In this document: positions 2,930-62,583 of the stretch, in pieces
Layout of the letters: each line of letters starts with the position of its first letter
Position numbering within the stretch: the first letter of the stretch is position 1
Origin: Spirochaetia bacterium
GTDB taxonomy: Bacteria; Spirochaetota; Spirochaetia; SP-2023
NCBI GenBank assembly: GCA_965263295.1
Contig: OZ253665.1
Span: 576,001-640,000 of the forward strand
Reading direction: 5' to 3'
Length of the DNA: 64,000 nt
Program-made: the position numbers and the translations under genes
The notes under the pieces: generated by a model
The model's database searches: none
What the model was told of the DNA's origin: nothing
The model's input: only the letters and a program-made list of their open reading frames with translations

Positions 2930-5296
2930 ATGAGTCCTGCCGATGCGACAAAAGCCGCTGTGCCAGTTTCGGACATAAAAAATAAAGCTGTCCATGTAGC
3001 TGAAACTCCTGCGGCTCTAGAAGGAAATGCGCCGCCTGTCGAGGACTTAGGGCGCCGCCGCACAAGTATTTCCCTGCGCGCCTTTTGGTTGTTTACTAAT
3101 ATTTCCTCTCTGCTGCTGTTCTTCCTTATCGTTTTGTACTTGTTACACCTGCAGAACCAGACCACGACACTGCGTTCCAACTTACAGATTCAGGGCCAAG
3201 TTTCCCACCAGATTGAGCGACAAGTATTGCGCTATTTCGAAAATGCTTCCAAACAGTTAAATATTCTTAATGACTTAATGAGAAAGGATCTTGAACGTTT
3301 GGGCGGACTACAGCAAGATGATTTTTTGAGCCTCGCAGAAACTATTGTCAAAATGGATGGCCATATTAATGCTGTGTATTGTGCTGATGAGCATGGGAAT
3401 TTTTATATGGCGAAGCGTATTCGCAATGGCGTCATCGGCCGTAAAATAGTTACGCCTCGCGGCAGTACAACTATAGAGCGTTGGAATTTTTTAAATGGTC
3501 AAGAGTTCCCGTCTTACCCTGCTCGGCGCGAAGTTCCCAGCTCGCAAGCCTATGATCCTCGTCAGCGCAGCTGGTATAGCGTAGCAAAGTCAAATAAAGA
3601 GTATTGGCATGGTCCGTATATTTTTTATACAGATAAATTTATGGGCATGACTGGGGTCATCGGTTTGGGCTCCTCGCAAGATTATAAAGTAATAGGTATA
3701 GATATTGATATTTCCGATTTAAGCAGCTTTCTGCAGGAGTTAGCATTTAGCAAGGTAGGCTATATCGTCATTAAGGATGCTTCTGATAATCTGGTCGCGG
3801 TCAGCGACAAAGAACGGCCAGATTATAGTATTAATCAGATAAAATTTTACGTTCAAGATAACCGACAAGAATTTGCTATACAGAAGGTTGCCGAGTTGGA
3901 TAGCAGCTCAGTCATGAGCTTTTTTGCCAAGCGAATTTTGTCCTTAAACACAAAGCAGTTGCAGCAAAGTTCGGTTTGGGAAGAGAATACAAATTTGCTT
4001 GAACAGTTGCTGACAATGTTTTTCCCAAGGCGCGCGAAGAGTTCCAATGTGCGCAATATATTAATCAAAGGCATTGACTATGGCACTATTGAGCGAAATG
4101 AGCAGGGCGAAAAACGCAACTACCTGTTTACCCACAATGCCTTTCATCCTTTTGAAGGTATATCTTGGGAAGTCTATACATTCACAGATGTAATGGATAT
4201 TAGCAATTCTCTAGACTACCTGAGCAAAATTATAACCTGGATTTTTTTGGGTTTCATTTTATTGTTTATATTCATTTTACAATATGTATCAAAGCTAGTT
4301 TCCCAACCTTTGAGTGAACTTTCGCGTATGATGGAAAATTTTCGCCAACACTTGGCTTTGGAGCAGAACTTTGTGGACCACAGTCGCTTGAAGGTCAAGG
4401 AAATCGAAAACATTGGTAATGTATACAACAACCTGCAGAACGGTTTCCGCTCATTTAAAAAATTTGTGCCCGATGTAATTGTGCGACGCTCAATGAACAG
4501 TTCATTTTTAGGCAAAAATCAGCTAAATTCACAAATGCATAAGCGTCAAGTCTCAATCTTATTTTCCGATATTGAAGGCTTTACCTCTATTGCGGAACGC
4601 TTGCAACCTGAAGTTTTATGCCGGTGTCTGGAAGTCTACTTTTCGCTGATGAGCCAGGAAATCGGTAACAATCAGGGCATCGTCGATAAATTCATTGGAG
4701 ATGCTATTATGGCCTTGTTTGGTGCTTTCCATGATGCGGAGGACGAGGCGCAGACAGCACGCCAGGCCGTCCAGGCGGCACTAAGTATGCAAAAGAAATC
4801 TGAAGCGGTGCAACGCGCAGTCCAGAAGATTGACCCTTCCGTGTCTTTGCGCACGCGCATTGGCATTAGCACCGGGCAGGCCATGGTGGGAATTTTCGGC
4901 TCGCGCCAGCGTCTTAACTTTACGGCCATGGGTGATCGGGTCAACTTGGCTAGTCGCTTGGAAGCTGTCAACAAAAAATATAAAACTCCCGTAATCGTTT
5001 CGGAACGAACGAGGGAGCTCGCCGCAGATACTTTTATATTTCGCTACCTGGGCCGTATTCAGGTCAGAGGGAAGGAGCAAACAGAAAAGATTTACCAACC
5101 CATTGGTCCAATCAATCAAGTGAGTGACTATTATAAAAGTTACTATAAAAATTTTGGACAGCTGCAGTCAATATTGGAAAAAGGCGACTGGAACTTGTCG
5201 CAAAATGCTGTGCGCAAGATGCACCAGCACTTTCCCGGCATTGTCGACCCCTTGTTTGAACAAATGCGTCAGCAGTATAAATCCAAGGAAGTTTAG
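2930..5296 (+). CDS. Membrane adenylate cyclase, class III (TM-Cache-TM-HAMP-cyclase)
   Basis: Cache signature YDPRQRSWY...WHGPY...VIGIDI. Cyclase motifs FSDIEGFT, DKFIGDAIMA and NFTAMGDRVNLASRLE; the K and T residues suggest ATP specificity. Confidence 0.92.
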   Translation: MSPADATKAAVPVSDIKNKAVHVAETPAALEGNAPPVEDLGRRRTSISLRAFWLFTNISSLLLFFLIVLYLLHLQNQTTTLRSNLQIQGQVSHQIERQVLRYFENASKQLNILNDLMRKDLERLGGLQQDDFLSLAETIVKMDGHINAVYCADEHGNFYMAKRIRNGVIGRKIVTPRGSTTIERWNFLNGQEFPSYPARREVPSSQAYDPRQRSWYSVAKSNKEYWHGPYIFYTDKFMGMTGVIGLGSSQDYKVIGIDIDISDLSSFLQELAFSKVGYIVIKDASDNLVAVSDKERPDYSINQIKFYVQDNRQEFAIQKVAELDSSSVMSFFAKRILSLNTKQLQQSSVWEENTNLLEQLLTMFFPRRAKSSNVRNILIKGIDYGTIERNEQGEKRNYLFTHNAFHPFEGISWEVYTFTDVMDISNSLDYLSKIITWIFLGFILLFIFILQYVSKLVSQPLSELSRMMENFRQHLALEQNFVDHSRLKVKEIENIGNVYNNLQNGFRSFKKFVPDVIVRRSMNSSFLGKNQLNSQMHKRQVSILFSDIEGFTSIAERLQPEVLCRCLEVYFSLMSQEIGNNQGIVDKFIGDAIMALFGAFHDAEDEAQTARQAVQAALSMQKKSEAVQRAVQKIDPSVSLRTRIGISTGQAMVGIFGSRQRLNFTAMGDRVNLASRLEAVNKKYKTPVIVSERTRELAADTFIFRYLGRIQVRGKEQTEKIYQPIGPINQVSDYYKSYYKNFGQLQSILEKGDWNLSQNAVRKMHQHFPGIVDPLFEQMRQQYKSKEV

Positions 5297-30159: not shown

Positions 30160-30280
30160 AATAAAAAAATATTGTATAATCAAAAGAATTTTTAACCTAA
30201 GTTTGGGTCTTGGATAAAGTTCCCAATAACGCTCCCTCATGGAAGAGAGTATTATATTATCTGTTAGGAGTTGTGTAGTT

Positions 30281-31180
30281 ATGATTATTAATCACAACCT
30301 CAGTGCCTTGAATACCCAGCGTCTTCAGGGTCTCAATGATGCGGCCGCAAGTAAGGGTATCGCACACCTTTCTTCGGGTTCACGCATTAACCGTGCAGCC
30401 GACGATGCTGCGGGACTGGCCATCTCGGAGAAAATGCGCGCGTATGTCTCTGGTCTGAACCGGGCCAGTCGTAACATTCAGGATGGGGTTTCCTTTATTC
30501 AGGCTACCGAAGGCTACCTGAGTGAAACAACCAGCATTATTCAGCGCTTGCGTGTCCTGGCTGTGCAAGCTGCTAACGGTATTTATCAGCAGGAAGATCG
30601 CAACCAGATCACGGTTGAAGTCAGTCAGCTGGTCGCCGAGGTAAATCGCATTGCCAGTCAGGGGCAGTTTAATGGTATAAACATGCTGGATGGTTCTTTT
30701 TCTGGCGGCACCCAGCAGCAGCCTGCTGTCGCCGCTGCTGCTGCTAGCGGTCAGGTAGCCGCCCCGGTTGTTCAGACTGGGGGAAATGGCGGTTTGGTCG
30801 TTCATATGGGGGCGAATGCTGACCAGCTCCTTAGTATTGCGATTGGCGATATGGGTGCGAGCAGCTTGGGTATTGACACGGTTGATTTGTCTAGTTCTGA
30901 TGGCGCTAACACGGCATTGGGGCAGTTGGATAATGCCCTTCAGATTGTCAACAAGCAGCGGGCTGATCTCGGTGCTTATCAGAACCGTCTCGCTCAGGCT
31001 CGAGAAGGTGTCGATGTCGCTGCAGAAAATCTACAGTCTGCGGAGTCGCGTATTCGTGATGCAGATATGTCATCGCAGGTTGTCAATTTTACTCGCGAGC
31101 AAATTAAATCTCAAGCGGCTACCGCTATGCTGGCTCAGGCCAACCAGCGCCCGCAGCAGATTCTACAGCTTTTACGCTAG
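30281..31180 (+). CDS. flaB: Flagellin, periplasmic filament core (FlaB type)
   Basis: [68 protein letters not shown] before ATG 30281. Confidence 0.96.
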
Positions 31181-31517: not shown

Positions 31518-33365
31518 GTGGAAAAAATCAATATTCCGATTGGTTTTAAACTGATAACTATCACTTCGTTGATTCTTCTAATTAGTTTAATTGGAACGAA
31601 CTATATTGCGGGCATTTTTTTTGAACGTGATACAATTGCCCGTATCCAGGAAGTTACGGCAGATAAGTCTCGTTTGTTATCATTTAAAGTGCAAGCGGAT
31701 TTAACCTATTTACTGCGTCAGGTCTACGTGGTTGCAAGCAGCTTGCTCAGTCAATATGAAGCAGGTAATTATGATGATGGCCTAGAAGAGCAGCGCCGAC
31801 TGGAAGAGCTGGCAAGTTTTGATAAGTTGTTTTACATCGCTGTTTACAGTCAAGAAAAAGACTTAGTTCTAGATCAGATCAATTTACAGAATATTGATGG
31901 AATTACTGATCCAGAAATGTTTCGCGACCTTACGGCACGCACTGACTTTTTAGGGGGAGTGTCGCGGGATCTTTTACTATATAACGTTAGTTCCATGGCC
32001 AGTACGCCGACGATTGCTCTAATTAGTCCGATAGAACGCGAGGATGATTCTGAAAAATATTTTGCTCTAGTATATATTAGCAATGACGTTTTTGCAGAAA
32101 CAACTAATGATGTCAGTGAATATGAGACATATATTGTCAATCATAAAGGAGATTTACTCGCCCATAAAAATGAGGATCTGTTAAAAAATGGCATTTCTTT
32201 TAGCAATGATAAAATTGTTCAGACAATGTTGAAGAGTCCTCTTAACAATGGGCAGATGAGCTATGAAGACCGTAATGACATAGAACACATTGGTTCTTTT
32301 TACAAGATTGAATTGGGTTCTGTCGGTGTAATCAGTACGGCGGAACGCGATCGGATATTAAAAGCTGTATATCAAATTCGTCTTCGTAACTATTATATAA
32401 CAGGTATAATTCTCCTTGTTTCAGTTCTAATTATTTATATTTTTGCGAAGACATTGTCCACTCCGGTACGCCGCCTGGTGGAGGCGGCGCGAGAGATAGA
32501 GCAAGGTAACTTTCTGCTGAATATTAAGGTGACGACGCACGATGAGATCGGCAAGCTAACTGAATCGTTTACCGAAATGGGCCGCGGGTTAGATGAGCGT
32601 GATCGAATGAAAGATGCTTTTGGTAAGTTTGTCAATCAAGAGGTCGCAAATATGGCCTTGAAGGGACAACTGCGATTGGGAGGGGAGCGCAAGGAAGCTG
32701 CAGTCTTTTTTTCGGATATTCGTTCCTTTACTGCAATTTCGGAAAAACTCACTCCTGAAGAAGTTGTTGAATTTCTAAATGAGTATATGACGGCTATGGT
32801 AGAATGCGTGGAAGCGACCCATGGGGTGGTGGATAAATTTATTGGCGATGCTGTGATGGCTGTTTGGGGAGCGCCTGTTTCTCACGGCAACGATACAGAA
32901 AACGCAATAAACAGCGCCCTTATGATGCGTTCTGCTTTGGAAAAATTTAATCGGGGTCAAGGTGGCGATAAAAAGCCAATCATCAAAATTGGTTGTGGAA
33001 TCAATACGGGCTCTTTGGTTTCCGGCCAGATTGGCAGTGAGAACCGTATGGAATACACCGTTATTGGTGATGCTGTAAATCTGGCTTCCCGTATTGAAGG
33101 TCTGACTAAACCTTTTGGTGCAGATATTCTGGTCTCTGAAGATTCCTATGCATTGGTCGGCGACCTTTATCATACAGCTGAAATGCCGCCGATCATGGTT
33201 AAGGGCAAATCTGATCCTGTGAAAATTTATGCCGTATTGGGGCATCGCAACGATCCGCATGCATTTACGCATATTGATGAACTACGTCAATATTTAGGGA
33301 CAGAAAATGTTGATCTCTCACAGTTTGATGGTGTAGGTAAGGAAGAAAAATTTAGCGCTGTTTAG
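31518..33365 (+). CDS. Membrane adenylate cyclase, class III (TM-Cache-TM-HAMP-cyclase)
   Basis: YIVNHKGDLLAH (Cache), HAMP ...DEIGKLTESFTEM, FSDIRSFT, DKFIGDAVMA, EYTVIGDAVNLASRIE. Confidence 0.93.
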   Translation: MEKINIPIGFKLITITSLILLISLIGTNYIAGIFFERDTIARIQEVTADKSRLLSFKVQADLTYLLRQVYVVASSLLSQYEAGNYDDGLEEQRRLEELASFDKLFYIAVYSQEKDLVLDQINLQNIDGITDPEMFRDLTARTDFLGGVSRDLLLYNVSSMASTPTIALISPIEREDDSEKYFALVYISNDVFAETTNDVSEYETYIVNHKGDLLAHKNEDLLKNGISFSNDKIVQTMLKSPLNNGQMSYEDRNDIEHIGSFYKIELGSVGVISTAERDRILKAVYQIRLRNYYITGIILLVSVLIIYIFAKTLSTPVRRLVEAAREIEQGNFLLNIKVTTHDEIGKLTESFTEMGRGLDERDRMKDAFGKFVNQEVANMALKGQLRLGGERKEAAVFFSDIRSFTAISEKLTPEEVVEFLNEYMTAMVECVEATHGVVDKFIGDAVMAVWGAPVSHGNDTENAINSALMMRSALEKFNRGQGGDKKPIIKIGCGINTGSLVSGQIGSENRMEYTVIGDAVNLASRIEGLTKPFGADILVSEDSYALVGDLYHTAEMPPIMVKGKSDPVKIYAVLGHRNDPHAFTHIDELRQYLGTENVDLSQFDGVGKEEKFSAV

Positions 33366-41786: not shown

Positions 41787-42106
41787 GGTTATTCTGAAAG
41801 GCATTCAGAGTAAGAATTTTATCTCCGATATGGCTCGGCAGTGCTCGTCTTGTCTGTTGCTACTGCAGCTCGTGTCGTGCTGCGAGTTGCGGATGCTTTC
41901 GTGTGGCGGCAATTTCTTCTTTTTCTCCGTCCCATCCTGAGTTGCGGGTCTTGGCCCGTTTGTGGTTTCACTTGTTGAGCCGGAGGGTGGAAAATCATGG
42001 CAAGACCTTTTGCGCTTAAAAGCATCCCAAAACACATCCATACACATCCATTGGAAAATTTTTACAGTTCTCATTGTTTTTTGTTTGTGTTTTTATGGCG
42101 AATATG

Positions 42107-42133
42107 TTAAGTTTTTAATCTGTCGACCGAATA
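42107..42133 (+). promoter_or_regulatory. Putative sigma28 (FliA)-type promoter
   Basis: TTAAGTTT-N11-ACCGAATA against the consensus TAAAGTTT-N11-GCCGATAA, about 95 nt upstream of ATG 42228. Confidence 0.45.
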
Positions 42134-42227
42134 ATGAGCATTTTTTATTTGCCCGTTGTTTTAGGCCGGCGGCCGACAGCATACTCAAGTGTACGTCTGT
42201 CTATTCTCTCAAATAGATGAGTATATC

Positions 42228-45200
42228 ATGGAAGAGCAATCAGATAGTGTTTCTGAGGCGCAAGACAAAGAGCTTGCAGATCAGTTCATTCGAGCACAAA
42301 TTCCGGCGTTAAGGGGAGCTGCCGGCCCGGGCCCGGAGCGGCGGTCGGGGGGCAGCAAGGCGCACAAAACCAACCCCTCTCAATTATCTGTCCGGCTGCC
42401 TCAATTGATGGAGGCCACGAGCGACAAGCCTAGTGCTGTAATTGAACATTTGCGCACGCATTACGCCAACTACCTGGTTCTCGGCAGCTCCATGAAGTCT
42501 GCGCCCGTGCCGCTGGCAGCGGGTGCGCCGGCAGCTCTGCACAGCGGGGTTGCCGTGCTGTTTCAAGAACTGTTGCACAACAGCATCGACGAGTACTTGC
42601 AGGGGCACGGAAAAGTCATTGATGTATTGTGCAGCACTGAAACCATTACCATTCGCGACTACGGCCGGGGCATCCCGCACCCCCGGCTGCGGGCTGAAAT
42701 TCAGGAACTAGGCCAAAATCAAAAATTTAACAGCCCGGACTTGCGGTACTGTGAGGGGCTCAGCGGCTTGGGATTGAAGCTGGTCAATGCCTTGAGCAGT
42801 CGGTTTTTATTGCGTTCTTACCGCGTCAATCGCTTTGCCGAAATTGAAACGGCGCAGGGTAGAATTCTGCGTGATCGCCGTGGGCGCTGTAACAAGGAAG
42901 ATGGCACTTTTATCCGTTTTACGCCGGATCCAGGGATTTTCGCCGCGCAGTCAGTTAGTGTCGCAAAGTTATTTGATGTGCTGTGTAAAGTTTCAGCCTT
43001 GTTCCCTGGCTTGGAGATTCGCTTGAATCAAACTCATGTCATCAAGCAAAAAGGGGTGGGAGATCTATTTCAGTCGCTGCCGCAATGGCGCAAGCTGAAT
43101 TATTTATATGGCGCCCGCAGCCTGTCTGGGCGGGCTTGGCAGCTGGGTTTTGCCCATTTGTCTGAGTGGCAGAACAACGATGGCGGCTTGCACAATGAGC
43201 GTCTGGTGCAGAGTTTTGTCAATGGCCATGCCTGTGCCGGCGGTATATCGGGTGGGCTGCATGTCAGACAATTGCAGGGTGCATTTCTCGGAGCTCTGCG
43301 CGAAGTATTTCCAGACAGGGTTGCGCAGGTTAATGCTTTCTGGGACAAGGGGATCACTTTATTCTGGAGCTTGAGCCTGGTGGAACCAAGCTTCCAGGAC
43401 TTGGGTAAAACGCAGTTGACTGGCGCGGAGAGCGAAGTTTCGAGCATTGCCTTGGAGTGTCGCCAGCAGCTGTGTGAGCTTTTTGAGCGGGACGGCGAGC
43501 TAAAGACACAGCTGGAAAAATTGCTTGGCGATTGTGAAGCCGCCGAGGAACGCGACGAATACAACCTTTGGCAATCTCGCCTCTCTGGTGAACTGTTGCA
43601 AACAGAAGAGCGCACTCGCCAGCTGGAGCAGACACTAGAGAACTCGGAGCACAAATACAATGTCTTGAATGACGATTTGCATACGGCCCGCGAAGAGAGC
43701 GAAGAGATGCAGAAACATTGGAAAGATGTTTCCAGCCAGCTCGTCATGGATATGGAACAGGCTGAAAATGACCTGAATGAGTTCAAAAAGCTGCAGCGTG
43801 CCGAGCAACGCCGTTACCGCAAGGAACAGGAAAAGCGCCTGCAGAACCTGGAAGAGGAACAGCAGCTCTATCAGAAACTCAAGGATGGCGTGCGAGAGCA
43901 AACTAAGGAATTGTTAAATAAAGAATCTCAGCGTCAGCAATTAATTGATAGTGGTCTAAATAACTGGAACAGTTTGCAAAAATCTCTGGAAGAGGCCAGT
44001 ACTTTACAAAAGCAACGTGATTTGGAGCAGGAGCAAATTCTGGATTATCTGCGCGGTGCCAAGGCTTCGACGGAGACCGAAGTCGGGATTGTGCAGCAGA
44101 ATATCAAGCTAGCCGAACAAAAGATGTTGCAACGGCAGGAAGCCTACTTAAAAAACTTGCAGGACAATGCCCGCGAAGAATTTGATACGATTCATGATGA
44201 GATTGACAGCCACAAACAGGAATTGCGCAAAGTTCTGACGGAAGAGCAACGCAAGGCGGATGAGAAGCTTGAAGTTTTGCACAAGCGCCTGGACAAGAAA
44301 ATGCAGCTTGAAGATCGGCGTTGGCAGGAGCAGCTGGAGCAGGCGGGAAAAAGTTCGGCACAAGAGTGGCAACAAAGTTTAAATCGCCGTCGTGACGCGT
44401 TGGAACGTCTGGATCAGAATTGGCGTGAGCAGGAAGCTGTGCTGGAGGAACAACGTCAGAAGCAGCGGAGCTTTATCGAGCGTTGGCGCGAACGCTTGGT
44501 CGACGGGCGCCGTGAAGTGCAGGCCCATCAGGATGCGCAACGCGAACTGGTTCGCAATCGTAAAGAATTGCAGGAGTTTTTTGAGGGGCAGAAAAGAGAG
44601 CGCGACGATCAGGCTAGAAAATGGCAAGACTGGCTGGAGCAGAACCGCAAGGAACTGGCTGAGAACCAAGAGTTGACGAATAAACAGCTTGCCAGTCAGT
44701 ACGAGGCCCAGAAAGAGCAACAGGAGGACTGGGATCGGCGTATAAATGAGCAGGGAAAGGAGATGGAAACGCTGCGCAGTAGGCAGCTGGAGGCACTAGA
44801 ATCCCTGGGTACGCGTCTGGAGCGTGAGGTGGAACAAGAGGTTCAACGTCGCTTGAAGGATTGGCTGAAGAATATGGAGCGGCTTGGCCGCGAAGGTGAA
44901 GAGCATTTCATCGTCGAACAGAAATTACTGCAGACGAAGCAGCAGACTCTAGAAAATGAATTGGCTTTGGTGCAACAGGAAAAAGATAAGCTGTGGCAAG
45001 GCTGGACTCAAGAGCTGGAAGGAGCCAAGGGGGAAATGGCTCGCCAACTGGAAGAGAAGCAGACAGACTGGCGACAGAAGCAGGAGGCGCTGCAGAGCGA
45101 CCTGGAACAGGTGCAGAGTGAAAAAGAAAAATTGTGGTCGCAGTGGCAGAGGGACTTTGGCAATGCCAAGGAGGAAATGACTTGCCAGTTGGCTAGACGC

Positions 45201-47105
45201 AAAGAAGAATGGGAACGGCGCCAGGAGACCTTGTTGCAAGAATTTGAAAGACACCTGGAAAGTCTCAAGCAGAAGCAGTATGCCCAGCAGCACCGCATTG
45301 AAGAGACCCAGACAGAGCAGATGAAGACACTAAAACAGTTGCAACAATGTCAACGTGATGCAGATGAGCGCATGGGTAACCTGAATAAGGATCTGCTCAG
45401 TTATACCGCAGAACTTCGCAAGGAAATTGAAACTTCAATGGCTGAATTGCGCAACAATACCGATCACCAGTTTGCCCAGGTTGAGCAGTGTGCTCAGGAT
45501 CAGGCTCTCCTCTATCAGCAAGGCCTGCTGGAGAGGGAACAGGAAAGTCGGGAATTGCTGGATAAGTATCGGGAGAATTTTGATCAAAAACTGGAACAAC
45601 GATACCAGGATATGAGTCAGTGGAGTGAAAGCTTCGTCCAGCGCTTTGATGAACAGAAGCAGGCTTTGCGCGAAAGCCTGGAGGAGTTTGGCAAGGGCCT
45701 GAAAGAAGAACAGGAAGCCAATTTAATACAGGAGCTGGAGTCTCGCAATGATAAATTTCGGGCGGAACAGAGTGGCAGGGAAAAGCAGGCCGCCCAGGAA
45801 GCCCAACGCAAACGCAATCAGTTCTGGCGTGAACAGCAGCTTGACGCTCAGCAAGAGGCCCAACAGCAACGTCAGGAATTTCAGGATTTACATAAGCAAC
45901 TGCACAATACAATGGAGCGCGAGCGCGAGCGCGTGCAAAAGGAATTGGACTATTTGCAACAGTTGGCACAACAGCAGGAAGAAAGTCTGGAAAGCCTGAG
46001 TCAAAGCTTGGCGCGCGATGTTGAACAGCGATCTGAACATTTGAAGAAAGACATGGAGGAGAACTACCGGCAGTTTCACGAAGAAATACTGGGTAACACC
46101 CGCGAGCTCCATCAGATGAATTCTGAAGAGCGTAAGACTTTGCGTGACGATCTGGCCAAGATGCAGAGCGATGTAAAAGAACTGAATGCCAATATTGGCT
46201 TGTCGGAACAGGCCTTGCAGACTGTACAAAAGGCTTTGCCTGACAGCCTGAAACTCCAAGAGAGCCTAGATAAATTAGCGGGAAAAGAGAAATTGCTGCA
46301 TGAAGTTGAGCGAGAGATCACGCAGTTGCAAAGTACCTTGAATGAAAACAGTCAAATTGGCCAGAAGACTTCTGAACAATTGGCGGCTCTGTTGGCCCGT
46401 CGCAACGAACTGAGTGATATTGAGCAGCAGATGGGGCAGATACTCAACCTTTCTGGCGACCTGTATCAACAGCGTGAAAGTCTGGACCAGCAGCAAAAGC
46501 GTGTCGCCGGCTATCAAAATCAGCTAGACAAGCTAGAGCACCTGTACAAAGAAAGCAGTGACTTGCTGGAGCTTTTTGACGAGCGCAAAAATCAAATGCT
46601 TGAGGCAGCTTCATTGCTAAACGGTTACAGTGAAGATCTGGGTAAAATGGATGAGAAAATCCAGGTCCTACAGGAGCAACTGCAGCCGTTGGAACTGAGT
46701 TTTGGCAAAGCCCAGGACTTGCAGCAGGAGCTTGTAGGACAACAACAACAGTTACAGAGTACCCAAGAAGAGCTAGAGCACATGCAGCAGGCCTTGGGCG
46801 AACTGCATGAGGATAGCCAAGGCATAGACAAGATGCGCGACTGGATTGCGAAGACGGAAACACGAATGCTTGAATTGTCGCAGGATATTCAGGAAAACTT
46901 GCGTACCGTAGAGACCATAGTCCGCAAGAATCGTCCCGGCGAGCGAAATTCGCACAGCGGGTTAGGCAAGGTCGATAATGATGTGCGCAATACAGTCGTT
47001 CAGTTGTACAATAAAAACTGGATTAGCAGTGAGATAGCCCGTGCTACACAGCTGAGTGTGGGCGAGGTTGAACTGATCTTGGAAATGCTGCCTTCAGCTT
47101 CCTAG
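42228..47105 (+). CDS. ParE/GyrB-type GHKL ATPase-transducer fused to a very long coiled coil with a C-terminal DUF2802/SwrB-like helical motif
   Basis: ELLHNSIDE, IRDYGRGIP, GLSGLGLKLVNALS, GTFIRFTPD, SFVNG...GGLH, then ~1150 aa of E/Q/K/L heptads, ending SEIARATQLSVGEVELILEM. No TOPRIM domain. Confidence 0.85.
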   Translation: MEEQSDSVSEAQDKELADQFIRAQIPALRGAAGPGPERRSGGSKAHKTNPSQLSVRLPQLMEATSDKPSAVIEHLRTHYANYLVLGSSMKSAPVPLAAGAPAALHSGVAVLFQELLHNSIDEYLQGHGKVIDVLCSTETITIRDYGRGIPHPRLRAEIQELGQNQKFNSPDLRYCEGLSGLGLKLVNALSSRFLLRSYRVNRFAEIETAQGRILRDRRGRCNKEDGTFIRFTPDPGIFAAQSVSVAKLFDVLCKVSALFPGLEIRLNQTHVIKQKGVGDLFQSLPQWRKLNYLYGARSLSGRAWQLGFAHLSEWQNNDGGLHNERLVQSFVNGHACAGGISGGLHVRQLQGAFLGALREVFPDRVAQVNAFWDKGITLFWSLSLVEPSFQDLGKTQLTGAESEVSSIALECRQQLCELFERDGELKTQLEKLLGDCEAAEERDEYNLWQSRLSGELLQTEERTRQLEQTLENSEHKYNVLNDDLHTAREESEEMQKHWKDVSSQLVMDMEQAENDLNEFKKLQRAEQRRYRKEQEKRLQNLEEEQQLYQKLKDGVREQTKELLNKESQRQQLIDSGLNNWNSLQKSLEEASTLQKQRDLEQEQILDYLRGAKASTETEVGIVQQNIKLAEQKMLQRQEAYLKNLQDNAREEFDTIHDEIDSHKQELRKVLTEEQRKADEKLEVLHKRLDKKMQLEDRRWQEQLEQAGKSSAQEWQQSLNRRRDALERLDQNWREQEAVLEEQRQKQRSFIERWRERLVDGRREVQAHQDAQRELVRNRKELQEFFEGQKRERDDQARKWQDWLEQNRKELAENQELTNKQLASQYEAQKEQQEDWDRRINEQGKEMETLRSRQLEALESLGTRLEREVEQEVQRRLKDWLKNMERLGREGEEHFIVEQKLLQTKQQTLENELALVQQEKDKLWQGWTQELEGAKGEMARQLEEKQTDWRQKQEALQSDLEQVQSEKEKLWSQWQRDFGNAKEEMTCQLARRKEEWERRQETLLQEFERHLESLKQKQYAQQHRIEETQTEQMKTLKQLQQCQRDADERMGNLNKDLLSYTAELRKEIETSMAELRNNTDHQFAQVEQCAQDQALLYQQGLLEREQESRELLDKYRENFDQKLEQRYQDMSQWSESFVQRFDEQKQALRESLEEFGKGLKEEQEANLIQELESRNDKFRAEQSGREKQAAQEAQRKRNQFWREQQLDAQQEAQQQRQEFQDLHKQLHNTMERERERVQKELDYLQQLAQQQEESLESLSQSLARDVEQRSEHLKKDMEENYRQFHEEILGNTRELHQMNSEERKTLRDDLAKMQSDVKELNANIGLSEQALQTVQKALPDSLKLQESLDKLAGKEKLLHEVEREITQLQSTLNENSQIGQKTSEQLAALLARRNELSDIEQQMGQILNLSGDLYQQRESLDQQQKRVAGYQNQLDKLEHLYKESSDLLELFDERKNQMLEAASLLNGYSEDLGKMDEKIQVLQEQLQPLELSFGKAQDLQQELVGQQQQLQSTQEELEHMQQALGELHEDSQGIDKMRDWIAKTETRMLELSQDIQENLRTVETIVRKNRPGERNSHSGLGKVDNDVRNTVVQLYNKNWISSEIARATQLSVGEVELILEMLPSAS

Positions 47106-48090
47106 GTGAGTGCGGTATGATTTCAGGGCTCCACAGTTCTTTACGTGAAATACGGAATTGTAGGGTCAGGCCGAAGCTGAAACCGGTTGTATCTTCGTCT
47201 ATGGTACCTAATTTATCTAGAGAGAGGCCAAAAGGCATGGCTTCAAAGTAGAACCCGGCGGCGACGCGACGATATACGGTGAATTTTAATTTAAGTCCTA
47301 GACCTAGAAACATTGCCGAATAGTTACTATCCGTAATGCCTTGGCTGAAAATAAAAGCATTTGAAAGGTAAAAATCTAACAAAAGAAAGCGGGCCGGTGC
47401 CGATCCGCCAAACACTAGATTATTTTGTATCTGTATCAGGCCAGGGCCGGTGGCGCCTGCGTCAAAAAAGTTAAAACTTCCTGTGATGCCAATGCGCAAC
47501 TGAGAGATCATAAACAAAGCTTTTAAATACAAATACATATTGCGGTAGTCAGTATCGCGAGCATTGTTGATGGTATTGGTCAGAAAGGTCCCTTCAAGTT
47601 GCAGTTCCATCAAACCTTGCAAATTATAATAGACCCTAATGTAAGGGCCAAAACCAAACAGATTAGGTCGGCTTTCACTGGCCAAAGTGTATTCTTGGGC
47701 CGGACCAAAGAGCAAGCCAACGTTTTCATTGCCTATGCCAAACGCAAAATTACTTTGTTGATTGCGCAGGTTATTAAGTAGCAACTGAAAATGAAGCACA
47801 TAATTGTTGTGCAATACAAGCAGGGCCTCAAGGTCGCCCTGAGGCATCATGGCATAACGACTTAAAGCTACTTCTTCGGCAAATACAAAGTAGCCAGGGG
47901 TCTCATTGGTATCTCTAGTGGCAAAGTTACTCATGCCTGTCGAGATATTGAGAAGTAAGAGTGGCTGATATTGAAAAGAATGAGCGGATAGAGATTGGGG
48001 CCATTGGGCCGACAGCAGCAGGCCTAAAGTCAGGCTATAGTGCAGCTGTGGGTGGGGCGACTTGTGGCCACTAATTTTAATAGCTTTCAT
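47044..48090 (-). CDS. Hypothetical exported protein, probable outer-membrane beta-barrel
   Basis: Signal-like N-terminus and many alternating aromatic/hydrophobic strands (FGFGPYIRVYY, FSFGLTLQF); ATGA-coupled to the upstream gene. Confidence 0.65.
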   Translation of the reverse strand: MKAIKISGHKSPHPQLHYSLTLGLLLSAQWPQSLSAHSFQYQPLLLLNISTGMSNFATRDTNETPGYFVFAEEVALSRYAMMPQGDLEALLVLHNNYVLHFQLLLNNLRNQQSNFAFGIGNENVGLLFGPAQEYTLASESRPNLFGFGPYIRVYYNLQGLMELQLEGTFLTNTINNARDTDYRNMYLYLKALFMISQLRIGITGSFNFFDAGATGPGLIQIQNNLVFGGSAPARFLLLDFYLSNAFIFSQGITDSNYSAMFLGLGLKLKFTVYRRVAAGFYFEAMPFGLSLDKLGTIDEDTTGFSFGLTLQFRISRKELWSPEIIPHSPRKLKAAFPRSVQPRPHSAV

Positions 48091-49001
48091 TTTTCCTGAT
48101 CTTGCTTTTTCAGGTATTTACGTAGTAAATACAATTCCAAGCGATATTCAAAATGCATGGCATCAAAGTAAAGCCATTTCCCGCCCCAAATGAATCCTTC
48201 ACTTTCAAAGGCATCAATCACTGCTTGAGGAGGCGCCCAGCGTTTCGAGTAGGGAATATTGTACCAATCCTGTCGATGATTGCGTTCCCAGTTCCAGTAT
48301 ACGGCTTTGCCATCCCAACTGCCGGGTATTAAGTCTAATGCCGTTCCAAAGCTATGATTGCTAAGTTTTTCAAAGTATTGGATATTACGCCAGGTATAGG
48401 TAGAAATATTGCGCAGGTTGAGGAAAAAATGATCCAGCTCTGGATCCTGGCGCCGAGCCCTGAGTAGACGACGTTCAATGCGCTTTAATGGCCAGATAAT
48501 CATAGGATGAATTTTTATGCGAAATTCCATGAATGGAATTTCCTGAACTAGTTTATCCATAGTGGTTTTGTCGGGCGCCTGATAAAGAGTTTGACGAAAA
48601 GCGTCGCTCTCCTGGATTGTCAGACCCTGGCTGTTGCGTTCTAGTATTTTGAGGAACTTCTCTTCTTCTGCGGGGTTGGAGAAAGGAGGGACGGGGGGCA
48701 ACTCTTCGGGATAGTAATAGACTCCAAATTTGCGATATTTCTGGTATTGATCTGCCAGTTCCTCGGGCAAAATACGCCCGTGTGCCCAGTTAAACCAAGT
48801 TCCATTGACCTTGATACCCCAATCATGCAAGTGGCTGCGGAAACTCAGTTTGCTGATCTGATGTGGGTAGGCTTGGCTCAAGGCGCGCAAAACAATATAA
48901 GCGCTTCCGATTTTATCACTTTTGCCTGCAGAGCCAAAGAGTAATAAGGTGGGCAGGGCCCAACCAATTAATAAAAAAGTCGGTATGGATGAGATTTTCA
49001 T
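48087..49001 (-). CDS. M15 family zinc metallopeptidase (peptidoglycan D,D-carboxypeptidase/endopeptidase-like)
   Basis: WRNI...SNHSFGTALD (SxHxxGxAxD) and FIWGGKWLYFDAMHFEY. Confidence 0.9.
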   Translation of the reverse strand: MKISSIPTFLLIGWALPTLLLFGSAGKSDKIGSAYIVLRALSQAYPHQISKLSFRSHLHDWGIKVNGTWFNWAHGRILPEELADQYQKYRKFGVYYYPEELPPVPPFSNPAEEEKFLKILERNSQGLTIQESDAFRQTLYQAPDKTTMDKLVQEIPFMEFRIKIHPMIIWPLKRIERRLLRARRQDPELDHFFLNLRNISTYTWRNIQYFEKLSNHSFGTALDLIPGSWDGKAVYWNWERNHRQDWYNIPYSKRWAPPQAVIDAFESEGFIWGGKWLYFDAMHFEYRLELYLLRKYLKKQDQEK

Positions 49002-60296: not shown

Positions 60297-62441
60297 TTAC
60301 AAAACTTCTGCCGTTTCTTTGAGATTCTGAATGATAAATTTCCTGCGCTGGGGTGTGTTTTTTCCCATGTAAAACGCCAATATATCAGGGATGCTGTGCA
60401 TTTTAAACGGTTCGACATTCACCGGAATCAAGCGTATTTTTTCATCGATAAATTGCCCAAATTCCTTGGGAGAAATCTCACCTAGCCCCTTAAATCTTGT
60501 AATTTCTGGGCTAGAAAGTTTCTTGATCCAGTGCTTGCGCTCTTCTTCGTTGTAGCAGTAGTGGGTTTCCTTGCTGTTGCGCACACGAAACAGCGGTGTT
60601 TCAAGGATAAACAAATGCCCCGCCTGCACTAGTTCCTCAAAGTAGTGCAGGAAAAAAGTCATCAGCAAGTTGCGAATGTGGTAACCGTCATCATCGGCAT
60701 CTGTGGCCAGAATAATTCGATCGTAGCGCAACTGATCGGTGCCATTCTCCAGCCCCAGGGCTTTGAGCAGGTGAAACAATTCTTCATTTTGATAGATCTC
60801 TGCCGTACTGCGCCCGAAGCAATTCCAGGGCTTACCGCGCAAGGAAAACAAGGCCTGGCAGTAGACGTCGCGACAAGAGACCAGAGAACCCGTGGCCGAC
60901 TGGCCCTCAGTGAGAAAAATCATGGTCGGTTTATTTTCCCGCATGGCCTTTTTGGGGCGCTTGTCGCCGCGGTGATATTTGCAGTCGCGCAGCTGGGGGA
61001 TGTTCAGGGTCAGGCGCTTGCCGGATTCGCGCATCATTTTGCGCACACTTGAAAGCTCTTTGCGCAACTTCTCGTTTTGCTTAATTTTCTCTCCGAGCTT
61101 TCGTGCCAAATCTTCGTTGCGATAGAGCAGGTCGGCGGTCATCTTGCGGACTTGGGCGGCGATCGGGCCGCGCAGCTCAGTACTGCCCAATTTGTTCTTG
61201 GTTTGGCTCTCAAAAATCGGATTTTTGACTTTGACTTTAATTGCGGCGACCAAGCCGTCGCGAATGTCTTGCGCGGTATAGGTGGTCTTGTAGAAATCGT
61301 TGATACCGCGCGTAAAACCTTCGCGAAACGCCTGCAAATGGACGCCGCCATCGACAGTGAATTGGCCATTGACAAAAGAAAAGTGCGTTTCACCAATTTG
61401 CTGCGTGTGGGTGAAGGCAAATTCAAGCCCTAGATTTTCGTCCCCCCGGTGTTCATCCCTGTTTTTATCTTTGGTGGGTTCGGCCCTCATGGATTCTTCA
61501 TTTCTGCGGGCATCACTTTGACAGCGCATGATCTGATACAGGGTCCCACTCTGAAGTTCGCGCTGCAGCAGGTCCTGCAGGCCGTGCCGGCTAAAGTAGC
61601 GCTCGGTCTCGCCGGCGACTTGCATTGTCAATTGCAGTTCTGGATTCAGGCAAGAGTAATGAAAAAACCGATTTTGCAGGAATTCTAACTGGAAAGCGAA
61701 TGGGCCAAAAATTTCATCGTCGGGCCAAAATTCGACGTATGTTCCATTGGCTTCATTTGTCGGCCCCTGGTTTTGGCGCTGCAATTTACCTCGGACAAAT
61801 ACGGCTTCGGCCATTTGACCGTCGCGGTAGGCTCGCACCAGAAAATGCGCGGAAAGTGCGTTTACGGCTTTGGCGCCGACACCGTTGAGACCGACAGAAA
61901 ACTGAAATACGTCGTCGTTATATTTTGCCCCGGTATTGATGACGGAAACGGCCTCGACAATTTTGCCCAAGGGTATACCGCGGCCGTAGTCGCGCACCGA
62001 GATGAGGCCGCTGCTGGCTCTGCGTTTGCGTTTGCGCTGCTTTTCGTCTTCCGACTGCCAAGCGGCCGGCGCATCGGTTGGGGCCGGCACATCCGCTGGC
62101 TCTGCGTCAGAGGGGCTTGCTCCATCATCGCTAGCCGGCACAGATTCTGCGCCGCGCCCCGTCGCCGCATCCGCAGATTGGGGGCGAATGAGCGTCAGCC
62201 GGCTGCCGTCTGCGTAACTTTGCTCTAAATGGATTTCAATGTGCTTGCCTTGGCCCATGATATATTCATCGATTGCATTGTCAACGATTTCCTTGAGCAG
62301 GATATAAATACCGTCTTCGTAGTGTTCGCCGCCGCCCAGGCGGCCAATGTACATCCCTGAGCGCAGGCGAATATGCTCTAGGGCTTCCAGAGTCTGAATT
62401 TTGCTCTCGTCGTAATTATTGTCCGTTTCTTTGGCAGGCAT
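60297..62441 (-). CDS. parE: DNA topoisomerase IV subunit B
   Basis: LEHIRLRSGMYIG, EIVDNAIDE, DYGRGIP, GLNGVG, FESQTK, TEGQSA, LRGK, ATDADDDG, RFKGLGE. Start taken at MPAKE behind an AAAGGA RBS. Confidence 0.93.
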   Translation of the reverse strand: MPAKETDNNYDESKIQTLEALEHIRLRSGMYIGRLGGGEHYEDGIYILLKEIVDNAIDEYIMGQGKHIEIHLEQSYADGSRLTLIRPQSADAATGRGAESVPASDDGASPSDAEPADVPAPTDAPAAWQSEDEKQRKRKRRASSGLISVRDYGRGIPLGKIVEAVSVINTGAKYNDDVFQFSVGLNGVGAKAVNALSAHFLVRAYRDGQMAEAVFVRGKLQRQNQGPTNEANGTYVEFWPDDEIFGPFAFQLEFLQNRFFHYSCLNPELQLTMQVAGETERYFSRHGLQDLLQRELQSGTLYQIMRCQSDARRNEESMRAEPTKDKNRDEHRGDENLGLEFAFTHTQQIGETHFSFVNGQFTVDGGVHLQAFREGFTRGINDFYKTTYTAQDIRDGLVAAIKVKVKNPIFESQTKNKLGSTELRGPIAAQVRKMTADLLYRNEDLARKLGEKIKQNEKLRKELSSVRKMMRESGKRLTLNIPQLRDCKYHRGDKRPKKAMRENKPTMIFLTEGQSATGSLVSCRDVYCQALFSLRGKPWNCFGRSTAEIYQNEELFHLLKALGLENGTDQLRYDRIILATDADDDGYHIRNLLMTFFLHYFEELVQAGHLFILETPLFRVRNSKETHYCYNEEERKHWIKKLSSPEITRFKGLGEISPKEFGQFIDEKIRLIPVNVEPFKMHSIPDILAFYMGKNTPQRRKFIIQNLKETAEVL

Positions 62442-62583
62442 TCGCATTCCTTTACTGGCTAGAAAATAATAGCACCAAGGCATTGATAACAGAAATCTGA
62501 CGGCTTGCCAAGCCCCGGGTTTTCACCTGTTGCCTTTGTGAATAGTTTAGGTCAGGCAAACATACATTTCGGCTCGCGCCTAC

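Follow-up and report, generated by a model that had tools for sequence, protein, structure and literature searches.

A ParE-type ATPase and transducer module in place of the membrane anchor in a SpiroCoCo-family protein of a marine spirochaete lineage

What does the ATPase of a type IIA topoisomerase do when it heads a helical rod of more than a thousand residues instead of a DNA-cleaving enzyme? This question is raised by a gene located at 42228..47105 (+ strand) of a 64,000-nucleotide (nt) stretch of the genome of a Spirochaetia bacterium (contig OZ253665.1, positions 576,001 to 640,000; hereafter the window). To our knowledge, the ATPase and transducer of type IIA topoisomerases rarely occur without a DNA gate attached. 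In the present case, judged from its sequence, the gene is a second paralogue of SpiroCoCo, a named but uncharacterised family, and encodes this ATPase in place of the N-terminal membrane helix of the family. The open frame is unbroken from 42189 to 47105 (+) and the ATG at 42228 gives a protein of 1,625 amino acids (aa; protein cluster P0002), with the stop codon at 47103-47105; this start is backed by the N-termini of orthologues in the alignment. The single uninterrupted frame described in an earlier note, made from the letters of this DNA alone, is thus borne out and is conserved in the orthologues.

The head of the protein (residues 66-430) corresponds in full to the "43K" module, ATPase and transducer together, of the B subunit of a ParE-type topoisomerase. 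It comprises a GHKL (Bergerat) ATP-binding domain of the ParE type (residues 66-270; 42423..43037, +), recognised by Pfam, NCBIfam, BLASTP, PDB and AlphaFold2/Foldseek searches, and a transducer domain carrying K394 (residues 271-430; 43038..43517, +), delimited by alignments to ParE up to residue 429 and to the structure 1s16 up to residue 397. The comparator is the true ParE of the genome, encoded elsewhere in the window (60297..62483, - strand), a protein of 728 aa that has both Toprim and the GyrB C-terminal domain. Pfam detects HATPase_c at residues 110-232 of the head with 29.2 bits (cut-off 26.4). The NCBIfam model parE_Gneg (TIGR01055) matches residues 111-401 on its positions 34-340 with 82.7 bits and the GyrB model PRK14939 scores 58.8 bits, both far under their equivalog cut-offs, as expected because the head is a fragment. 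BLASTP against the ParE of the window yields 81 identities over 314 positions (26%; 99 bits, E-value 4e-26), a second segment covering the N-box, and every motif pair that the earlier note had matched by eye recurs in this alignment. The best sequence match in PDB is the 43-kDa fragment of Escherichia coli ParE (1s16; E-value 3.9e-18, residues 111-397 on 35-337), and tblastn finds only three such domains in the genome itself: this head, ParE (99 bits) and GyrB (59 bits).

The predicted fold agrees with this assignment. The AlphaFold2 model of residues 60-460, computed from a 99-row alignment, reaches a predicted local distance difference test score (pLDDT) of 90.9 and a predicted template-modelling score (pTM) of 0.88; it supersedes an earlier run from a 10-row alignment, which gave a poor model (pLDDT 50.5). 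The top Foldseek matches listed for this model are all GyrB/ParE chains, nearly all of them ATPase fragments, with template-modelling scores of 0.63-0.76, a fold match that is not independent of the sequence evidence because the 99-row alignment included ParEs. A search of the ESM Atlas with the head returned GyrB-like fragments only, with scores of at most 0.85. The prediction of a homodimer (two copies of residues 60-460 with two ATP) scored 0.00, a value that counts neither for nor against binding. Globally, the ParE-type origin proposed for the ATPase and transducer is supported by NCBIfam, BLASTP, PDB and AlphaFold2/Foldseek.

The residues of the ATP site are given the roles known from the GyrB/ParE literature, and their numbering was carried over through the 1s16 alignment. 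E114 corresponds to E38 of ParE, N118 to N42, and D144-x-G146-R147-G148 to D69-x-G71-R72-G73; K166 stands at the 'GGKF' position, G177, G180 and G182 belong to the lid, and K394 corresponds to the transducer Lys. Among 10 sequences of the family, E114, N118, D144, G148, K166, G177, G180 and G182 are invariant, G146 is found in nine (Ala in Candidatus Haliotispira prima), and K394 is Lys in nine and Arg in one; T227 is Thr in seven of the nine sequences of another alignment. At the position of the lid His, this protein has Ser and the ParE of the window has Asn. Between its G1 and G2 boxes, the protein has as many residues as the spirochaete ParE of the window, without any gap over residues 135-194, and 8 fewer than E. 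coli ParE. The earlier statement that the catalytic Glu, the Mg-binding Asn, the G-boxes and the transducer Lys are kept therefore stands, with the near-invariance just given for G146 and K394, but does not extend to the partner Gln of the 'QTK' loop, considered below.

What follows the transducer is not a topoisomerase. A Pfam scan of the protein at E-values up to 1 gave no match to Toprim (PF01751), DNA_gyraseB_C (PF00986) or DNA_gyraseB (PF00204), and the sequence beyond residue 430 is rod, in line with the claim that TOPRIM had been replaced. Of the combination that the earlier note had suggested looking for by HMMER, HATPase_c and DNA_gyraseB without Toprim, the HATPase_c match and the absence of Toprim were found and the DNA_gyraseB match was not. 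Homology to ParE ends around residue 430, at the end of the transducer, and in the model, which has helices at 342-362 and 364-393 (numbered from residue 60), the last transducer helix passes straight into the long helix that opens the rod; the rod therefore starts at the point of attachment of Toprim. As the domains of the DNA-cleavage side, Toprim and the C-terminal tail, are missing, the protein is, on its predicted domain content, incapable of acting as a topoisomerase subunit.

When 38 ATPase-transducer sequences are placed in one tree, all 10 fused heads fall in a 100/100 clade, whose stem is 3.6 substitutions per site long, and the head is thus no simple recent duplicate of parE, as had been proposed. 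The clade attaches inside the ParE radiation, elsewhere than GyrB, and is not sister to the ParE of the genus itself; its exact position is unreliable because of the long branches. A spirochaete-type ParE is the favoured candidate donor, since ParE scores above GyrB and the lid has the same length. As to the ParE of the genus, its 728 aa compare with open frames of 599-650 aa in other families of Spirochaetia, whose matches to it are split at residues ~159-320 and ~352-721; this ParE therefore has extra segments at ~94-155, between the N-box and the G1 box, and at ~320-352.

The other end of the protein assigns it to SpiroCoCo. Residues 1305-1618 (46140..47081, +) match the SpiroCoCo_C model (NF047515), a heptad-like coiled coil (period 3.46) plus tail, with 129.9 bits, or 135 bits in the genome search, for a cut-off of 125. 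This pass is marginal, as is that of the canonical paralogues of the genus (140-156 bits), compared with 330-360 bits in other families. A search with the C-terminal 336 aa retrieved nine fused forms and 19 other long proteins (1,017-2,647 aa), none of the latter with a precomputed HATPase_c and one of them named "SpiroCoCo family coiled-coil protein [Borrelia hermsii]"; the Borrelia hermsii protein P0136 has 2,262 aa. In six of seven inspected proteins (P0123, P0129, P0130, P0133, P0136 and P0140), the N-terminus is a membrane helix followed by an 'RQLDRNNRS'-like motif; this criterion (helix plus 'R-Q/x-x-D-R-N-N-R-S') is our reading of the sequences and not a published definition. Both traits are absent from the protein under study and present in its paralogue in the same genome, a canonical copy of ~895 aa at C1:1348215-1350911. 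The transmembrane N-terminus that the earlier note had envisaged in relatives is therefore a reality in the canonical members, including this paralogue.

SpiroCoCo is found in 27 of 31 sampled genomes of Spirochaetia at E-values of 1e-5 or below. Within the genus, all four genomes have two copies above the cut-off and no more, one canonical and one fused, with open frames of ~900 aa and ~1,560-1,650 aa. Copies above the cut-off in other families of Spirochaetia correspond to frames of 256-4,425 aa, the shortest being cut off by contig ends and the longest, 4,425 aa, belonging to genome G007. The two paralogues of the window's genome share 27% identity over their last 252 aa; their split is therefore old, or their divergence fast.

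The protein ends (residues 1561-1625; 46908..47102, +) with a Gly/Ser/Asn linker and a helix-turn-helix-like tail of the DUF6115/DUF2802 type, terminating in ...SVGEVELILEMLPSAS. This tail scores 24.5 bits with DUF6115 (PF19610; E-value 3.7e-5), under the cut-off of 27, and the model hits all 10 tails tested (last 100 residues), six of them at or above 27 bits. Matches to DUF2802 are all below the cut-off of 33.5 bits: this tail scores 11.5 bits (E-value 0.35), the fused forms tested are weak (E-values 0.35, 0.022 and 0.022), the six canonical tails from other genomes all match at E-values from 1.5e-7 to 4e-4, and the tail of the canonical paralogue of the genome gives no DUF2802 match at E-values up to 1. 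The resemblance to the DUF2802-type tail of large spirochaete coiled-coil proteins mentioned in the earlier note is thus supported by NF047515, DUF6115 and DUF2802 comparisons. The tail is 80-84% identical among the four genomes; a PDB search with the last 120 residues returned nothing meaningful. Separately, open frames of 158-188 aa in genomes G008, G016, G018, G020, G026, G028 and G029 match SpiroCoCo_C over its final ~110 positions only and could be tail-only spirochaete relatives of the size of FipA, a DUF2802 protein discussed below.

Between head and C-terminal domain lies a proline-free helical rod (residues 431-1300; 43518..46127, +), delimited by composition and hydrophobic periodicity. 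The only prolines after residue 425 are at 1338, 1487, 1570 and 1622, none falling within 426-1337, and residues 431-1560 consist of 15.8% Glu, 15.2% Gln and 13.2% Leu. In 300-aa windows over residues 601-1350, the hydrophobic period is 3.59-3.62 residues, with a power of 2.9-5.0 against a maximum of 1.77 in shuffled sequences, and the period of 3.6 has a z-score of 12-15. A heptad-like period (3.45-3.46) appears only in the last ~300 residues, the final window giving 3.46. The same two-part periodicity (~3.63, then ~300 residues at ~3.45) occurs in this protein, in three orthologues and in six of six canonical SpiroCoCo members; the rod is therefore characteristic of the family and, for the most part, no heptad coiled coil. 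Of the "giant coiled coil" of the earlier note, the long helical rod is retained, the heptad coiled coil being limited to the last ~300 residues. Fully extended, the rod would measure ~170 nm (1,130 residues at the textbook value of 0.15 nm per residue). It also contains a 47-aa tandem duplication at about residues 935-981 (window ~45030-45170), in which ...EKDKLWQGWTQELEGAKGEM... recurs as ...EKEKLWSQWQRDFGNAKEEM...; in a nine-sequence alignment, only this sequence and P0009 carry it. Rod indels are mostly of 11, 18, 22, 29, 33, 36, 40, 47 or 69 residues and preserve the helical phase, as these lengths are near-multiples of 3.63.

The fusion recurs. Nine clusters (P0002-P0010, not all complete) with the same layout and 1,190-1,625 aa came out of a k-mer/HMMER search limited to protein lengths of 893-2,844 aa; their heads are 50-65% identical (E-values of 1e-131 or below), and the next match has an E-value of 3e-15. 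One of the partial members is labelled "ATP-binding protein" by its source. When 1.84 billion representatives were searched by HMMER without any filter, three of the family came out at 650-778 bits, then a fourth match at 178 bits followed by ordinary ParEs, and no stand-alone or split form of the head was seen in this search. Of the 29 next-best matches scanned, 16 have Toprim by Pfam. Nine Toprim-less ones were inspected and eight of these are presumably ParE/GyrB genes, with Toprim started, frameshifted or intein-split, as judged by the 'EGDSA'-type motif of Toprim; the ninth, P0249, is described below. A metagenome scan with the head alignment kept 80 loci, none above 45% identity, and brought no new members; the best locus (L042), the one inspected, is a normal parE-parC pair. 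Among GTDB species genomes, four of six of the order have the head, all four in the genus of the window (four of four), one named relative with the fusion being Candidatus Haliotispira prima SP-2023; neither of the two genomes of the sister family, with completeness of 90% and 79%, yielded the head. The distribution is narrow: one genus-level lineage, with three representatives at 50% identity. A distinct Toprim-less derivative of a ParE-like ATPase, P0249 (768 aa, outside the window), has a GHKL domain followed by ankyrin repeats and bears the same lid motif, GLSGLGLKLVNALSS, as the fused-head family; in the tree it groups with the fused heads, though only through a very long branch.

The gene is intact and maintained. 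Contigs from four public runs in three studies, one of them possibly the source of the window, span 42100-44100 or start at 42237 and show no joints. One of these contigs (X3) begins at 42237, 9 nt within the open frame, after 23 letters that are foreign to the window and resemble a SMART-type amplification primer; this start has no bearing on the transcript end. Among the four genomes, NG86 estimates for the head give proportions of nonsynonymous differences (pN) of 0.15-0.26 against saturated proportions of synonymous differences (pS) of 0.64-1.0; residues 66-270 give 0.15-0.22 against, likewise saturated, 0.64-0.92. The ratio of the corresponding rates (dN/dS) is 0.07-0.13 for the head in the four pairs with computable dS. 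The ATPase half is under purifying selection. Furthermore, a strain contig that is 99% identical (X4) differs by 8 changes in the open frame, five synonymous, two in the disordered N-terminus and V360I, and the differences of another (X6) fall mostly in residues 1-65, including in-frame deletions of 6 and 3 nt. Two doubts that the earlier note had attached to its reading are thereby removed: the junction is bridged without joints in three studies, and the ATPase half does not evolve neutrally.

How might such a protein work? We give about an even chance to a cytoplasmic SpiroCoCo rod whose head dimerises under the control of ATP, a mechanism built on analogy with GyrB, ParE, MutL, Hsp90 and MORC. 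Two heads would bind ATP and dimerise, and the transducer Lys K394 would read the gamma-phosphate; the resulting rotation would go directly to the first helix of the rod, the continuation of the last transducer helix. The heptad C-terminal coiled coil probably holds the two proteins together constitutively. The outcome would be the nucleotide-gated closing and opening of a very long pair of rods, ~170 nm extended or ~85 nm folded back, and ATP-dependent dimerisation of the heads would substitute for the membrane anchoring of ordinary members, fixing or pairing the N-terminal ends of the rods. The helix-turn-helix-like tail would be the likely site for cargo or a partner, the candidates being an FlhF-like GTPase or DNA.

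Several observations weigh against this reading or against parts of it. The Pfam DNA_gyraseB model misses the transducer at E-values up to 1, and the tree fails to place the head within ParE, ParE being monophyletic in 6% of bootstrap trees. Where the QTK loop should have its Gln, the protein has L392, and this position is variable across the 10 sequences of the family. The N-terminal strap region helps GyrB and ParE dimerise; here it is unrecognisable, without any counterpart to the 'YDES(K/T)' of 23 spirochaete ParEs. At the other end, canonical tails have a Gly 16 residues before the Glu of 'GEVEL', where fused forms have Asn or Lys; because of this loss, the binding of a partner by the tail may differ between fused forms and canonical members. 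Finally, the genomic context offers no clue to function, as no neighbours are conserved in the four genomes: in tblastn searches, 14 window proteins matched only the gene itself at the three orthologous loci (±10 kb), which are flanked by unrelated housekeeping genes.

In a rival explanation, the head would be a nucleotide-binding or purely structural dimerisation module devoid of real ATP turnover, only capping or bundling the rod ends in the cytoplasm in place of the lost anchor. The missing strap and QTK-loop Gln, the orthologue with Ala at G146 and the very long stem (3.6 substitutions per site) favour this explanation, which we consider unlikely. Against it, a sequence divergence of 50-65% has left in place E114 (the general base), N118 (which binds Mg), D144, K166, the glycines of the lid and the Lys of the transducer, which would be difficult to account for if the head neither catalysed nor at least fully sensed the nucleotide. 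It is more doubtful still, and indeed improbable, that the head pairs with the ATPase domain of ParE or GyrB and thereby tethers or inhibits topoisomerase IV as a regulator or localiser. The ParE derivation, the spirochaete-ParE lid length and the presence of the true parE 13 kb off in the window would fit such a role, but the head has only 26% identity to the ParE of its own genome, its clade is not sister to the ParE of the genus, the other three genomes show no synteny with parE or parC, and the rod and tail come from a family without known link to topoisomerases. An assembly chimera or a decaying pseudogene is practically negligible as an explanation, given that the frame is intact in four independent genomes and further metagenome clusters, that contigs from three studies bridge the junction and that selection is purifying.

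Two further proposals concern the role and the shape of the protein. A function in flagellar or pole positioning, in which the tail binds an FlhF-like GTPase and the ATPase head regulates the scaffold, would be compatible with the ATP-gated dimerising head; we hold it to be rather unlikely. It draws on the DUF2802 matches of six of six canonical tails from other genomes and the DUF6115 matches of 10 of 10 tails, on an FlhF-like gene in the genome (144.9 bits, cut-off 174) and on the analogy with FipA, whose DUF2802 needs a Gly and a Leu to bind FlhF (PMC11620751). It is countered by DUF2802 scores that all remain below 33.5 bits (11.5 for this protein, no match for the canonical paralogue of the genome), by the Asn or Lys that the GHKL forms have in place of the Gly equivalent to G110 of FipA, by the location of the gene away from flagellar genes in the four genomes, and by the statement of the FipA paper that FipA homologues are absent from spirochetes (PMC11620751). 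A bolder proposal, which we regard as very doubtful, is that the rod folds back around residue 970 and brings the tail beside the GHKL head, making an SMC/Rad50-like ATP-gated clamp with a topoisomerase ATPase. The rods of P0003, P0006 and P0008 are each shortened twice, by a deletion at residues 783-845 and another at 1107-1146, and these paired deletions are mirror-symmetric about residues 968-981, the site of a length-variable segment of 47 or 69 residues. At least two of the co-occurrences look independent; L004, the sister of P0003, does not carry the second deletion and has lost only 11 residues at the first site. Against folding back, L004, P0007 and P0010 have unpaired rod deletions (11, 11 and 57 residues) and a mirror test on Gly/Pro positions is at chance, being equalled or beaten in 485 of 1000 random sets. 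If true, bacteria would have in this clamp a long-range, nucleotide-driven machine of a new class, whose target would be the chromosome or the flagellar or cell-pole apparatus of thin, long cells.

Whichever of these holds, the architecture can be set against known systems. With ParE of the spirochaete/Bacteroidota type (1s16), the protein shares the GHKL fold and transducer, the Glu and Asn of the N-box, the G1 'RDYGRG', the lid glycines, the transducer Lys and, with spirochaete ParE, the lid length; unlike ParE, it has no Toprim, no C-terminal domain binding the A subunit, no recognisable strap and no QTK-loop Gln, and carries a ~1,130-residue rod after the transducer. With SpiroCoCo (NF047515), it shares a C-terminal domain above the cut-off, a rod of period 3.6 followed by ~300 residues of heptad-like coil, and the tail form GW/NW...EIA...LS.GEVELILE, but the canonical start, a membrane helix and 'RQLDRNNRS'-like motif, is replaced by the ATPase. 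MORC and SMCHD1 offer a parallel in their GHKL-plus-S5-like head that dimerises on ATP and their distant constitutive dimerisation element, features that are predicted for the present protein; unlike theirs, its head is of the type IIA topoisomerase lineage, it has neither CW finger nor SMC hinge, and its rod is about ten times longer. Indeed, Pfam HATPase_c_3 (PF13589) and CW do not match the protein, and its sequence and fold matches are all GyrB/ParE. Prokaryotic MORCs are said to have been described by Iyer and colleagues in 2008. SMC, Rad50 and MukB also carry ATP-dimerising heads on very long helical rods, as is proposed for the present protein, but these heads are ABC ATPases and not GHKL ones. 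No ABC-type head (Walker A/B), hinge or zinc hook is recognised in the present protein: JetC/MukB-like and Rad50 models match only coiled-coil regions, with 22-24 bits for cut-offs of 567-1087, and JetC of PADLOC scores 30.8 bits at residues 1304-1540. The identity of a defence system was rejected, PADLOC giving only weak coiled-coil matches, to JetC and LmuB.

The last comparison is with FipA, a DUF2802 protein of polar-flagellate gamma-proteobacteria with a membrane helix, a coil and DUF2802 in 163 aa, whose DUF2802 binds FlhF and requires G110 and L129 for this (PMC11620751). Canonical SpiroCoCo members resemble it in the order of membrane helix, coil and DUF2802-like tail, in the motif of the tail and in the distance from Gly to Glu (G110-E126 in FipA); in contrast, DUF2802 matches are sub-threshold and the present protein lacks both the membrane helix and the conserved Gly. 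Literature searches found nothing on SpiroCoCo nor on GHKL with coiled coil in spirochetes, and a wider search on GHKL, Toprim and coiled coils gave MORC, SMCHD1 and topoisomerase papers only. The opinion of the earlier note that no protein of this architecture had been described thus stands for the fusion, of which the search found no instance, and not for the rod and tail, which belong to a family already named SpiroCoCo by NCBI; only the fusion is therefore new. It is new both among GHKL clamp ATPases, by its head of the type IIA topoisomerase lineage, and within SpiroCoCo, where an ATPase replaces the anchor.

Other features of the gene and the locus are more ordinary. Residues 1-65 (42228..42422, +) are a low-complexity, poorly conserved N-terminal extension without transmembrane helix (17-32% amino-acid identity among the four genomes, pN of 0.47-0.60), with a pLDDT below 50 in the first AlphaFold2 run. 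The gene, which lies 480 nt downstream of the end of an HtrA-like protease gene, is apparently monocistronic. Its 3' end overlaps by 62 nt (47044-47105) that of a convergent 348-aa open reading frame (47044-48090, -) that has no Pfam match and whose start abuts an M15 peptidase gene (48087-49001, -). The window also includes two genes of membrane-sensor adenylate/guanylate cyclases, a dCache-cyclase and a HAMP-cyclase (2930-5296 and 31518-33365, both +), and a FlaB-type flagellin gene (30239-31180).

The tail of the family resembles, below threshold, the DUF2802 by which FipA binds FlhF; this suggests a specific interaction and is a lead rather than a finding. The fused form is a soluble version of SpiroCoCo, and as such is open to study in vitro. 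If the ATP-gated dimerising head holds, the protein would show that the ATPase module of topoisomerases can be used as a portable nucleotide-gated dimerisation device, like the MutL/MORC/Hsp90 branch of the GHKL superfamily. For the family as a whole, the swap of an anchor for a head suggests what the N-terminal end of the SpiroCoCo rod may have to do, namely to be held or to be paired.

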